10,064 nucleotides of DNA, taken from Escherichia phage CBA6. The stretch lies in sequence record KM389298.1; one strand, 5' to 3'. Below are positions 6,610-10,064 of the stretch, piece by piece; the stretch's first letter is position 1; every line of letters begins with the position of its first letter. Made by a program: the position numbers and the translations under genes. A model generated the notes under the pieces. That model ran no database searches, had not been told where the DNA came from, and was given only the letters and a program-made list of their open reading frames with translations.

Positions 6610-6888
6610 TCATTCGGACTTAAACAACAATTCGCGAACAGAAGTCCCAACGATATTCTGGGTGTTCAACAAACGAGTTAAATCATCCATGTCATATGCT
6701 GAATTGGTGATATGACGCAAGATAATCGCCAACATTCCCTCCAGCGCTCTCCGATTGTTATTCTCTTCAATGTCAAACTTAATTTCAACAAATCGAGATA
6801 GCATTCTGGATTGAGCATGAGTTTCGTTGGTTTTGCTCTGTATAATATCTTTGATTTCCGAACGAGCAATACTTCTTTGATCTGTCAT
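6610..6888 (-). CDS. Hypothetical protein, 92 aa, starting MTDQ
   Basis: ORF with ATG 6888..6886 preceded by AAGGAA. Its leader and first four codons are near-identical to those of the 6941..7447 gene. Confidence 0.6.
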   Translation of the reverse strand: MTDQRSIARSEIKDIIQSKTNETHAQSRMLSRFVEIKFDIEENNNRRALEGMLAIILRHITNSAYDMDDLTRLLNTQNIVGTSVRELLFKSE

Positions 6889-6946
6889 GATATAGTTCCT
6901 TCATTTCAAATGGGCGGGGCAAAGATACCCCGCCGTGGGTTTATAG
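6877..6946 (-). repeat. Copy A of a ~70-bp regulatory cassette: TATAAA box, GC-rich stem-loop, CATTTGAAATGAAGGAA leader, ATG ACA GAT CAA
   Basis: Aligned by eye to 7436..7505 at roughly 80% identity. Stem-loop GGCGGGG-n8-CCCCGCC at 6913..6934. Confidence 0.6.
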
Positions 6947-7447
6947 GGTAATAAGTGATACGGTAAAAACCATCGTCCCATCTGTTGTCATTTTTCTTGA
7001 AACTGGGAAGACGCGAGGCTGGCAGAATATCCATTCTTTCTCCATGGACGCCAAGTCCAGCATATCCATTTCTGATTCATCGTCTTTGTTCACAAATTTT
7101 TCTAGAGAACCAAAGACATTAAGCCCCTCTGGGAGTCCGTTTCGATGTTTGTAACAAATGCGAGCAACAGCTCTGGTTCCATACGATTTAGAAAATTGTT
7201 TGGCCACATGCTTCAGTTCGCTGAAACTAAGACAAGAATCCCATGTCTGAAACATGTCTCCTCGTTCAAACATCATCTCCAAACGCGCAACGTCCTCTTT
7301 AGGCAACCCGCGATAAAGTGTGGTCATCTGCGGTTCGCGTAATTCTTGCACCAGACCACGGATGGCAGGGGAAACAGTGCCAGGGCGCATGATGTGGGAC
7401 TTATCATGGACGAGGTAAAATAAATCTTGAATTTGTTGATCGGTCAT
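6941..7447 (-). CDS. Candidate mono-ADP-ribosyltransferase (R-S-ExE class), 168 aa
   Basis: Three motifs in the order and approximate spacing of R-S-E ADP-ribosyltransferases: 'TLYRG' (aromatic-Arg), 'LSFSE' (S-x-S) and 'EKEWIF' (E-x-E followed by hydrophobics). ATG 7447..7445 preceded by AAGGAA. Assignment is from motifs only. Confidence 0.45.
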   Translation of the reverse strand: MTDQQIQDLFYLVHDKSHIMRPGTVSPAIRGLVQELREPQMTTLYRGLPKEDVARLEMMFERGDMFQTWDSCLSFSELKHVAKQFSKSYGTRAVARICYKHRNGLPEGLNVFGSLEKFVNKDDESEMDMLDLASMEKEWIFCQPRVFPVSRKMTTDGTMVFTVSLITL

Positions 7448-7505
7448 GATGTATTTCCTTCATTTCAAATAGGCGGGGTAATCATACCCCACCCTAAGTT
7501 ATAGA
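7436..7505 (-). repeat. Copy B of the ~70-bp regulatory cassette (TATAAC box, stem-loop, shared leader, ATG ACC GAT CAA)
   Basis: Stem-loop GGTGGGGTA-tgat-TACCCCGCC in minus-strand RNA (plus-strand 7472..7493). Identity to copy A covers leader, SD, start codon and codons 2-4. Confidence 0.6.
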
Positions 7506-7506
7506 A

Positions 7507-7746
7507 TTAACTGATGTGCTTCAGAAGAGCGAAGAGGATCGCGGCCTTGGCTTTCACCTTTCCGACGACGCCTGTTTCGACATCGACTTCTTCGGCAACC
7601 CAATCTTTTCCCTTCTTGCTGATGATAACATCGCGGCGCTGGGCATATACTTCTTTGGTCGCATACACACGACGGAACCCTTTAGCGCGGAGCAAGCCCC
7701 AATTACGATCAATCTCCACTGAAGTTTCTACTATTTTGTTCTTCAT
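7507..7746 (-). CDS. Hypothetical small basic protein, 79 aa
   Basis: ORF with ATG 7746..7744 preceded by AAAGGTAAG; lies downstream of the promoter candidate at 7798..7826. No recognisable motif. Confidence 0.55.
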   Translation of the reverse strand: MKNKIVETSVEIDRNWGLLRAKGFRRVYATKEVYAQRRDVIISKKGKDWVAEEVDVETGVVGKVKAKAAILFALLKHIS

Positions 7747-7797
7747 GATATAATCTTACCTTTCAACCTGGTGAACCCATCGTTCGCCAGTTATTGA

Positions 7798-7826
7798 ATA
7801 ATACGCATTTGCCTTATAGAAGTAAA
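7798..7826 (-). promoter_or_regulatory. Candidate sigma70-type early promoter
   Basis: Minus strand: -35 (G)TTTACT at 7826..7821, exactly 17-bp spacer, -10 TATTAT at 7803..7798; sits between a terminator and the 7746 start. Confidence 0.4.
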
Positions 7827-7830
7827 CCCC

Positions 7831-7861
7831 TAAAAGTAAAAATCCCCAACGTTTGTTGGGG
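7831..7861 (-). terminator. Rho-independent terminator downstream of the ACP-like gene
   Basis: Minus-strand RNA: CCCCAAC-aaac-GTTGGGG followed by ATTTTTACTTTT. Confidence 0.6.
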
Positions 7862-7869
7862 ATCTTCAG

Positions 7870-8196
7870 TTACTTGCGCAGGGCAACCACGTATTCGGCA
7901 AGTTCACCCATGGTCGGGTCGTCGCCTTTACCGCCCAGCCAGCCATCAGAGATCTCGACATTGAACTCTTCTTCTAGTTCCATGACGATTTCGATGGCAT
8001 CAAGATCGTCGCCGCCGAGGTCTTTCTTGGTGCGGAGGCCAGCCAGTTTATCCAGGGCGTCATTCATAATCACTTCCGCGTCGACGATGCCTTTGATGCT
8101 GCTCTTGTCTTCGTCACTGACTTCCAGGTTCAGATTGTCAGTGGCGTACTGAGCCAGGTGACGCATTACTTCAACATAAGTTGGTTTGTTTGACAT
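7870..8196 (-). CDS. Acyl carrier protein (ACP)-like protein with Asp in place of the phosphopantetheine-attachment Ser, about 108 aa
   Basis: Core ...KKDLGGDDLDAIEIVMELEEEFNVEISD... aligns with canonical ACP helix II (E. coli ...[27 protein letters not shown]...), but the conserved DSL Ser is Asp (codon GAT at 8015..8013, checked on the DNA). Start taken as ATG 8196..8194; ATG 8202..8200 is an alternative. Confidence 0.7.
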   Translation of the reverse strand: MSNKPTYVEVMRHLAQYATDNLNLEVSDEDKSSIKGIVDAEVIMNDALDKLAGLRTKKDLGGDDLDAIEIVMELEEEFNVEISDGWLGGKGDDPTMGELAEYVVALRK

Positions 8197-8215
8197 AAGC
8201 ATATCTCAAAATGAA

Positions 8216-8231
8216 GGCGGGTTTCCCCGCC
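8216..8231 (-). terminator. Stem-loop between the large upstream gene and the ACP-like gene (weak terminator or RNA processing/stability element)
   Basis: GGCGGG-gaaa-CCCGCC followed on the minus strand by TTCATTTTGAG. Same stem composition and YATTTGA tail as the other intergenic hairpins. Confidence 0.4.
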
Positions 8232-8239
8232 AGTTGAAT

Positions 8240-10064
8240 TTAGATTTTGACTTCTTTTTCAGACAGTTCGGCAGTGACGGTGTATTTCACCCCATCAACT
8301 TCCACATCCATAGTGGATTCTTCCAAATCCAGGTCGGTAAACCAACCATGGCCTGCAACAATCCCATAAACTACCTTGGACAGCGTTTTGTTCAGGGCGC
8401 GGACTTCGTTAATGGCTGCTTTTGCTGCATCACCAATCCAACTTTCGATCAGCTTTTTCTGAGTCTCTTCCGGTACGCTGGTGATCATCGGCGATTTAAC
8501 AAACGCATTGTATTCAGCCAGGGCATTAGCGATCAGCTGATCAGCGACATTCAGTTTTTTACCGTCCGTCTGTTTTTTGATAACAGACGCGATGCTCGGC
8601 AGTGAAGATGCGCCTTTGATTTTCACATTCAATTCACGACTCATATAGACATCGGTTGATTCTACAGAAGAAGTCTTCGGTGAAAATCCATAGTCGCGAA
8701 TGCCGTTTGCTGACAGGAAATCAGCCGCTTCTTTGCCATATTTTGAAGCCAGACCCGTAGCGTTGCCTTTTCCAACCAGTTCATCACGGTAGAATTTCAG
8801 AACTTTCTGTTTTGCCTTCAATGCTTCACGGCGCACATTGTCTGCAAAGAATTCAGCAGCACTGATATTCTTTGTCATGGCGCGGTTAACCATTGGGACA
8901 CTTTCCAGATTTACAATGAAGACTTCCGGCCCACCAAACACATGAACACCCATGGCAGTCAAATCCTGTGCCACCTTAGCCCGAACAATCGGAGAATCTG
9001 CAGTGATAGGCATTGTTTTCAGGTTGATGATACCATCCTTGACAATGGTGTAATTGCGATAACGCCATGTATCCAGCTCTTCAGGAAGTTCATATTTCTT
9101 CTGTACAAACTCGGGCACAACAACCGTTCCGTGTTGAACTGTCTGCACACTGATGTTAGGACGTTCTGAATTATAGACCAAATTGCTGATCGGGACAATC
9201 CCTTTATCATCTGCTGGATTGAATTCCGGCGTCCAATCTTCGTGCTCGGCCAGTTTGAGCGCCAGGGCTTTACGCTCTTCTTTAGAAGTCGCATTCGCAA
9301 TCTCTTCGGCCAACTTGTCTTCGGTGTCGTCAACTTTTTGTATAGTACCGCGCCCAATGCTCTTGTAAGAGAATAGCGGATGCTTGGTGACGATAGAGAC
9401 ATCTGCTTCAGCCAAATACGTCAGAACATCAACAATGGTGGTGGCGTCTTCAGCCGGAACCATATTATAATCGATGCCATCAACTCCTCGCAGAGATTCG
9501 TCTACGATAGCCTGAGTCAGATCGACTTTGATGTTGGAGTAATCCTGCTTGGTGAAACAGTTGCTGTATTGTTTGATGAAGCGGACGTCACCCGTTTTCT
9601 TCAGCGCAGCCCAAACCAAATCTGCGTCCATGGTATACACGCCGTAAAATGCCAGCACGTATGCCGCTTGGATGTCTGCCAGATTATCCAGCTGGTCGAT
9701 CATGTTGGGGTTTACAACCCACAGCTGAGAAACGCTTTCAGGGATGCTGACGTGGCCAATAGGGTGCTCTTCATCAGGATGCACGGCTAAAACAGTCGCC
9801 ACGCCATTTTCAACATAAATGGCATGGGTGTAAACCAGGGGAACATCGACCACCACTTTCGGTGAAGAAGTTTTTAGCACGTTTTCCAATTCGGTCTGAT
9901 ATTCATTCTGGCCTTCAGCGAATACGTGGGTCGCACCAGAACGTTCTGCCATTAGCGCCAGCAGTTCGCGATTACAATACCAACCGTATTCGATGAAGGT
10001 AATGTTATCAAACGCTTTGGGCAGTACTTCAGCGGCATCCAGGATTTCATTAGAACGCCAGCAG
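8240..10064 (-). CDS. Large hypothetical protein (at least 570 aa in window, probably longer); N-terminus likely beyond the right edge
   Basis: ORF 8240..9952 in the track; the same frame stays open with protein-like sequence (…SNEILDAAEVLPKAFDNITFIEYGWYCNRELLAL-MAERSG…) from 9953 to 10064, and no SD precedes ATG 9952. No Walker A, polymerase, ligase or other catalytic motif recognised. Confidence 0.6.
   Translation of the reverse strand, partial: CWRSNEILDAAEVLPKAFDNITFIEYGWYCNRELLALMAERSGATHVFAEGQNEYQTELENVLKTSSPKVVVDVPLVYTHAIYVENGVATVLAVHPDEEHPIGHVSIPESVSQLWVVNPNMIDQLDNLADIQAAYVLAFYGVYTMDADLVWAALKKTGDVRFIKQYSNCFTKQDYSNIKVDLTQAIVDESLRGVDGIDYNMVPAEDATTIVDVLTYLAEADVSIVTKHPLFSYKSIGRGTIQKVDDTEDKLAEEIANATSKEERKALALKLAEHEDWTPEFNPADDKGIVPISNLVYNSERPNISVQTVQHGTVVVPEFVQKKYELPEELDTWRYRNYTIVKDGIINLKTMPITADSPIVRAKVAQDLTAMGVHVFGGPEVFIVNLESVPMVNRAMTKNISAAEFFADNVRREALKAKQKVLKFYRDELVGKGNATGLASKYGKEAADFLSANGIRDYGFSPKTSSVESTDVYMSRELNVKIKGASSLPSIASVIKKQTDGKKLNVADQLIANALAEYNAFVKSPMITSVPEETQKKLIESWIGDAAKAAINEVRALNKTLSKVVYGIVAGHGWFTDLDLEESTMDVEVDGVKYTVTAELSEKEVKI

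Follow-up and report, generated by a model that had tools for sequence, protein, structure and literature searches.

The metal ion-dependent adhesion site (MIDAS) of von Willebrand factor A (VWA) domains binds carboxylates. In archaeal ArnB (8s05_B, 5a8j), the Catenulispora protein 4fx5, ITIH1 (6fpy) and the COPII proteins Sec23 and Sec24, a VWA trunk is followed by a beta-sandwich, and eukaryotic Ku70/Ku80 combine a VWA domain with a beta-barrel and a C-terminal arm. Intracellular VWA proteins of phages and viruses have been described as MoxR-vWA co-chaperones, in a jumbo-phage pair and in the tail assembly of the archaeal virus ATV, and are presumed to bind through their MIDAS (PMC7824862). 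We analyzed a 10,064-nucleotide stretch of Escherichia phage CBA6 (KM389298.1, hereafter the window), in which a large minus-strand gene, beginning beyond the far edge, lies next to a gene for a protein resembling acyl carrier protein (ACP). We found that the large gene product belongs to the VWA superfamily and consists of a VWA/MIDAS domain, a beta-sandwich and a module lacking any known relative. The VWA annotation is already catalogued, as several GenBank records name the protein 'VWA domain-containing protein', and so does one paper (PMC10892097); the C-terminal module has so far gone unrecognized.

Domain architecture of the phage VWA protein

The frame of the large gene is open on the minus strand from the TAA at 8240-8242 up to base 10063, amounting to 607 sense codons (608 including the stop). 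It is the longest open reading frame (ORF) of the window, and an equally long open run would arise by chance with a probability of ~1e-14 (hand calculation; GC content ~47%). The window DNA is 99% identical to Kuttervirus (Ackermannviridae) genomes, namely Salmonella phages SS3 and SS9 and Escherichia phages PhaxI, FEC14 and CBA120. Since the orthologues SS9 gp151 and CBA120 orf143 (99% identical) are both 738 residues long, the window copy begins at residue 132, and residues 1-131 lie past the window edge. The ATG at 9952, which the ORF lister had used as start, encodes an internal Met, residue 169. The features of the gene are as follows.

8240-10064, minus strand: VWA-domain protein gene, 3' part (residues 132-738 plus stop), from the open frame, the orthologues SS9 gp151 and CBA120 orf143, and PHROG 2426
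9869-10063, minus strand: last third of the VWA domain (residues 132-196); the MIDAS residues D24, S26, S28, T97 and D127 are outside the window
9707-9868, minus strand: five-stranded beta-sandwich after the VWA domain (residues 197-250)
8243-9706, minus strand: C-terminal module of ~490 residues (251-738), made of a helical bundle, a beta-rich domain, long helices and a C-terminal hairpin; no known relative
8897-9226, minus strand: beta-rich subdomain (residues 411-520) with invariant RPNIS (R432, N434, S436) and RNYTIVKDGI (N468, D474, G475), from alignment columns and secondary structure
8774-8860, minus strand: long helix (residues 533-561) with conserved lysines K547, K551 and K554 at i, i+4 and i+7
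8597-8701, minus strand: most conserved segment of the protein (residues 586-620), IRDYGFSPK...STDVYMSRELNVKIKGASSLP; mean top-residue frequency 0.75

An initial annotation, made from the window alone, had taken the gene to be the largest in the window, with more than 600 codons, a start upstream of ATG 9952 and its beginning cut off by the window edge; the codon count and the orthologues bear this out. It had advised seeking the true N terminus past 10064, and the 99%-identical, 738-residue orthologues provide it, with the VWA domain at the N terminus. It had also seen no catalytic or nucleotide-binding motif, and we likewise found none in the visible part. Its description of the protein as an orphan of unrecognizable family does not hold, given the membership in PHROG 2426, the occurrence in 501 phage genomes and the N-terminal VWA/MIDAS domain.

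The VWA assignment comes from the full-length SS9 orthologue, in which PF00092 scores 31.3 bits over residues 20-182, versus a gathering score of 23.8. The window fragment alone (residues 132-738) gives no Pfam match; two thirds of the domain are past the window edge, which is why both the initial annotation and Pfam missed it. The MIDAS residues D24-x-S26-x-S28, T97 and D127 are invariant in 49 sequences with identities down to 34%. A Rossmann-like alpha/beta VWA fold, the full MIDAS motif and a passing Pfam score are thus all present. An AlphaFold2 model computed with the 49-sequence alignment has a predicted local distance difference test score (pLDDT) of 86.6, and a second model, of residues 197-738 from the window sequence, has a pLDDT of 89.2 and a predicted template modeling score (pTM) of 0.76. 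Structure comparison gave the following rows, each with two unlabelled figures.

4fx5 (Catenulispora VWA protein): 23.5; 290
ITIH1: 22.4; 266
ArnB (8s05_B): 22.2; 267
Sec24: 16.1; 300
Sec23A: 15.1; 280

The profile and structure searches that the initial annotation had recommended thus identified a VWA domain and an ArnB/ITIH/Sec23/24-like start of the protein, and left the C-terminal ~490 residues with no match among solved structures. PDB sequence and profile searches with the protein returned VWA matches only, and the C-terminal module matches nothing in Pfam, NCBIfam, PADLOC (E<=0.01) or PDB. No signal peptide is apparent by eye at the N terminus.

The C-terminal module is strongly constrained at a set of polar positions, with R432, N434, S436, N468, D474, K551, D602, Y604 and S617 all invariant. 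The segment spanning residues 586-620 holds the invariant residues G590, F591, P593, D602, Y604, S617 and P620. The helix formed by residues 533-561 is included in the only basic stretch (isoelectric point, pI, 9.8) of an otherwise acidic protein (pI 5.0). Judged from sequence conservation, the invariant polar residues and the lysine stripe are likely to form an interaction or active surface.

Three further long ORFs lie inside the VWA gene, at 8186-8605 (plus strand), 9380-9790 (plus strand) and 9019-9402 (minus strand), on the opposite strand or in other frames. They are found in many loci, and they recur only because they overlap the conserved VWA gene; they are therefore not independent genes.

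Distribution and genomic setting

We searched for relatives of the protein at several depths. The entire window fragment aligns to PHROG 2426, a group of 'unknown function' (E=4e-301). A word-indexed search of 5.8 billion proteins returned 237 relatives, and among the 120 relatives listed nearly all span 96-100% of the query, with identities down to 34%. Using the C-terminal 489 residues as tblastn query, we found the gene in 501 deposited phage genomes; the carriers include Ackermannviridae, the RB43-, KP15-, Miller- and GAP161-like Straboviridae, Pseudomonas phage pf16, Bacillus phage PBS1 and Rhizobium phages. Bacillus phage SP-15 was added by fold comparison against viral models. The carrier phages infect Gammaproteobacteria, Alphaproteobacteria or Bacillus, yet close relatives, T4 for example, lack the protein. 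Among 185,579 bacterial and archaeal species, sampled at one genome each, the gene turned up at only 5 loci. A profile of the C-terminal module detected 1,341 proteins among 1.84 billion cluster representatives, 858 of them at E<=1e-30. In the best 150 of the 1,341, the module is at the C-terminal end and most proteins are ~700-820 residues long, the shorter ones being apparent fragments; an N-terminal VWA match was present in 10 of 10 sampled proteins. The family is phage-specific and has a fixed architecture. Among the conserved "dark matter" of big lytic phages, it ranks with the larger pieces, having ~740 residues and an invariant metal site, its bearers ranging from Ackermannviridae used against Salmonella, E. 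coli O157 and Klebsiella through RB43/KP15-like T4 relatives to PBS1, SP-15 and jumbo phages.

The VWA gene is situated in a minus-strand block, with genes for RNase H, a helicase and an HU-like protein on one side and clamp-loader, regA, MazG and 5-hydroxymethyldeoxyuridine (5-hmdU) kinase genes on the other. In RB43, nrdC.11 and the baseplate genes flank the block of small, mostly unnamed ORFs on the same strand in which it stands, and at other loci its neighbors are genes for a ligase, a polymerase, ribonucleotide reductase or PIF1 helicase. The gene is thus positioned among replication and host-takeover genes and not among virion genes. No T4-type late promoter (TATAAATA) is present in 20.6 kb around it. 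In virion mass spectrometry of a Vi01-like phage, the VWA and ACP-like proteins were represented by 1 peptide each versus 196-311 for structural proteins (PMC10892097). We infer that the VWA protein is synthesized earlier than the late phase and forms no part of the virion.

No neighboring gene family is common to the loci beyond Ackermannviridae, as seen by BLAST clustering of all ORFs of 81 loci. A conserved small upstream ORF, or any other conserved neighbor, was sought as well and found to be lacking beyond Ackermannviridae; the additional ORFs that seem widely 'conserved' are antisense frames inside the VWA gene.

Other genes were noted around the VWA gene in related phages. In SS9, the 5-hmdU DNA kinase gene (PF18723, E=5.5e-82) lies ~5 kb past the position of the window edge (locus L001, 17263-18459), and a second large protein without Pfam match, the 671-residue gp157, is encoded at 14145-16160 of the same locus. 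We considered whether gp157 is a paralogue of the VWA protein and rejected this (hhalign probability 0.2%). Two distant metagenomic relatives carry a conserved opposite-strand block 3' of the VWA gene (L089, 9228-12981; L090, 9374-13862), which encodes an acetyltransferase, an ankyrin-repeat protein, a DUF459/GDSL protein and an MBOAT acyltransferase, plus a ClpB-like AAA+ protein.

Proposed function and alternatives

We propose that the protein is a stand-alone, cytoplasmic phage factor that binds proteins through its MIDAS and plays an accessory role in host takeover or counter-defence against a conserved target, a reading to which we give an even chance. An accessory takeover or counter-defence factor is suggested by the wide but patchy spread of the family, which reaches phages of Gamma-/Alphaproteobacteria and Bacillus and leaves out T4. 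In the proposed mechanism, the coordination of a MIDAS-bound Mg2+ would be completed by an Asp or Glu from an acidic protein ligand, as in other VWA domains. The beta-sandwich would pack on the VWA domain in a 'trunk plus barrel' manner, and the C-terminal module would then hold, sequester or modify the MIDAS ligand or a second partner. The target may be a bacterial protein that is widely conserved or a component shared among phages. In Ackermannviridae only, the acidic, Ser-less ACP look-alike described below may serve as a lineage-specific ligand or co-factor, one that the function of the family would not need. Identifying the ligand would show what these phages need to seize, in the host or among their own components, with a gene of their replication-stage block.

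Several points weigh against this proposal. The pre-late timing rests solely on gene position and the missing late-promoter motif; the invariant polar residues of the C-terminal module are equally compatible with an enzyme and with a binding surface; and the lack of a solved-structure match says nothing on what this module does. In the searchable literature (on orf143, Ackermannviridae VWA proteins, Kuttervirus transcriptomes and gene-essentiality maps), we found no functional study of the protein. We also looked for the protein among catalogued defence and anti-defence systems, and PADLOC gave no family at E<=0.01.

A different explanation starts from the gene downstream. The initial annotation had suggested that the large protein and its ACP-like neighbor work together, and the two could indeed form a unit that diverts host ACP-dependent enzymes, with the MIDAS or the lysine-rich helix gripping the acidic recognition helix. 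We consider this unlikely, for reasons that concern the following two features.

7870-8202, minus strand: ACP-like gene without the phosphopantetheine serine, 110 codons (PF00550, PP-binding, E=3e-7)
8216-8231, minus strand: GC-rich hairpin GGCGGG-GAAA-CCCGCC with a T-rich tail, between the VWA and ACP-like genes; terminator-like match

When the ACP-like product is aligned to E. coli ACP, it has GGD-D-LD in place of GAD-S-LD, the Ser-equivalent codon being GAT at 8005-8007. The position is D or E in 20 of 20 distinct orthologues, so the protein is unable to carry phosphopantetheine. With its very low pI of 4.2, it looks like an acidic ACP decoy. An acidic look-alike bearing D/E at the Ser position speaks for a unit of the two genes in view of the carboxylate binding of MIDAS sites, and so does the one conserved basic stretch of the VWA protein. 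The genes are moreover adjacent on the same strand, ~40 nucleotides apart, in all Ackermannviridae loci with a VWA identity of at least 67%, and 273 phage records contain the ACP-like gene. Two Serratia-phage loci have a gap of ~900 nucleotides.

The linkage ends at the border of this phage family. In an iterated profile search (jackhmmer) of six-frame ORFs from the 81 loci, the ACP-like gene was found beside the VWA gene in 25, all of them Ackermannviridae with at least 51% VWA identity, and no ACP-like gene was found within 6 kb in the other 56, which include RB43-like, jumbo and marine relatives. We considered the downstream genes of distant loci as cryptic ACPs, and both PHROG scans and iterated jackhmmer were negative. 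Genome-wide, the 273 records with the ACP-like gene are essentially all Ackermannviridae and compare with 501 carrying the VWA protein; ~228 of the 501 genomes lack a detectable ACP-like gene, among them RB43-, KP15- and pf16-like phages, PBS1 and Rhizobium phages. The ACP-like gene also appears to be swapped or to diverge by itself. Over positions 6800-10000, the window is 97-100% identical to CBA120 except in the ACP-like gene (7900-8200), where identity drops to 46-82%; with the drop confined to this gene, the two genes are not evolving as a unit. In a P46FS4-like phage (L014), the VWA protein is 83% identical and the ACP-like protein 92%. Sequence comparison thus marks the region of the ACP-like gene as a local hot spot of allele exchange or diversification.

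The spacer between the two genes bears on both sides of the question. It is 37 nucleotides long and contains no promoter, so that the ACP-like gene is probably reached by read-through from the VWA gene, for which the sequence makes a plausible case. It also contains a conserved, terminator-like hairpin, which argues against a simple unit. The initial annotation had called this stem-loop weak; it comprises six G-C pairs and a GAAA loop, with ~-14 kcal/mol in context, and its stem is kept by compensatory changes across genera (GGCGGG/CCCGCC, GCCGGG/CCCGGC, GGGGGC/GCCCCC). The hairpin is retained in Taipeivirus-like and Erwinia Bue1-like loci (L015, L017-L019, L049), and in every case a T-rich tract and, after it, the ribosome-binding site of the next gene come behind it. 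Its compensatory conservation indicates a functional punctuation mark, probably a partial terminator or a 3'-end stabilizer.

What stands of the suggested partnership is the strict adjacency inside Ackermannviridae. A functional link is possible within that lineage and is not supported family-wide, where the ACP-like gene is absent, so that the co-occurrence analysis proposed in the initial annotation went against a general pairing. That annotation had named two outcomes that would speak against its idea; the first, a lack of linkage in related genomes, was seen outside the one phage family, and the second, a match to a well-known unrelated function, did not appear.

It is also conceivable, if doubtful, that the C-terminal module is a new-fold enzyme recruited or regulated by the VWA domain and acting as a catalytic factor in host takeover or in nucleic-acid or nucleotide metabolism. 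About a dozen invariant polar or charged residues, located in RPNIS, RNYTIVKDGI, K551, D602-x-Y604 and GxSSLP, would fit an active site; the module is long and, in the predicted models, confidently folded; and the VWA gene resides in DNA-metabolism neighborhoods. Against an enzyme speak the missing nucleotide-binding or known catalytic motif, the negative searches of Pfam, NCBIfam, PADLOC and PDB, and the lack of any metabolic gene that co-occurs consistently, a DNA ligase being near the VWA gene in only 3 of 90 loci. The nearby SS9 5-hmdU kinase prompted us to consider an accessory role in thymidine hypermodification to 5-(2-aminoethoxy)methyldeoxyuridine (5-NeOmdU). This pathway of phage ViI has been rebuilt from gp67/gp243, gp247, gp226 and gp160 (PMC8989533) and is complete without the VWA protein, and the family is found in RB43- and KP15-like phages as well. 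The VWA protein is not part of the ViI thymidine-hypermodification pathway (PMC8989533).

A bolder version of our proposal is a long shot. In this version, the C-terminal ~490 residues would have a new fold and a new activity, and the family would constitute an unrecognized class of host-takeover or counter-defence proteins that seize an acidic host protein by their MIDAS; in Ackermannviridae, the protein would, together with a fast-evolving Ser-less ACP decoy, hijack the host ACP network.

Finally, that the protein is built into the virion or its tail, or helps to assemble virions as a MoxR-VWA chaperone like those proposed for the pairs of jumbo phages and of ATV (PMC7824862), is very improbable, because the 'minor tail protein' label on an orthologue in two Klebsiella phage records and the one VWA peptide in a virion preparation, which next to 196-311 structural peptides points to a trace contaminant (PMC10892097), are outweighed by a position in a replication/early block lacking the late-promoter motif, by the absence of an adjoining AAA+/MoxR gene in SS9, CBA120, RB43, PBS1 and six metagenomic loci, and by the lack of fold similarity to tail or baseplate proteins.

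Elsewhere in the window, we noticed a 65-nucleotide direct repeat (83% identical), whose copies at 6877-6941 and 7436-7500 are both intergenic. On the minus strand, each copy contains a GC-rich hairpin as well as a ribosome-binding site and the initial codons of the next gene, ATGAC(A/C)GATCAA (M-T-D-Q), and the repeat looks like a duplicated terminator-plus-start cassette. The gene at 6941-7447 (minus strand) encodes a 168-residue product that RefSeq calls 'RNA polymerase ADP-ribosylase' and that has no Pfam or NCBIfam match. It covers only positions 1270-1425 of the 1480-position PHROG 832 profile (E=8.5e-16), so the name was apparently carried over from a far larger protein.

Comparison with known VWA systems

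We compared the phage protein to the described systems introduced above. Like the MoxR-vWA co-chaperones, it is an intracellular VWA protein of a phage and presumably a MIDAS binder. In contrast to them, it has no linked MoxR/AAA+ gene, its VWA domain is N-terminal and joined to a different module, and a peptidase domain is missing. For want of a linked AAA+ partner gene, it is not a member of a MoxR-VWA pair. Ku70/Ku80 resemble the phage protein in size (~730 residues) and in the order of a VWA domain, a beta-rich domain and helices, and some family members are encoded beside a DNA ligase or PIF1 helicase gene; the phage protein is nevertheless not detectably Ku-like. With ArnB, 4fx5, ITIH1 and Sec23/Sec24, it shares the VWA trunk and the beta-sandwich behind it. 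Compared with Sec23/24 and ArnB, it lacks a zinc-finger partner or domain, the helical and gelsolin domains of Sec23/24 and the tail of ArnB, and the likeness is limited to the first ~290 residues, whereas the remaining ~490 match none of these proteins. Within the VWA/MIDAS superfamily as a whole (PF00092, PF13519, PF13768), the phage protein is set apart as a cytoplasmic member in which VWA accounts for no more than the first ~196 of 738 residues and is joined to a large module that is seen nowhere else and possibly represents a new fold.

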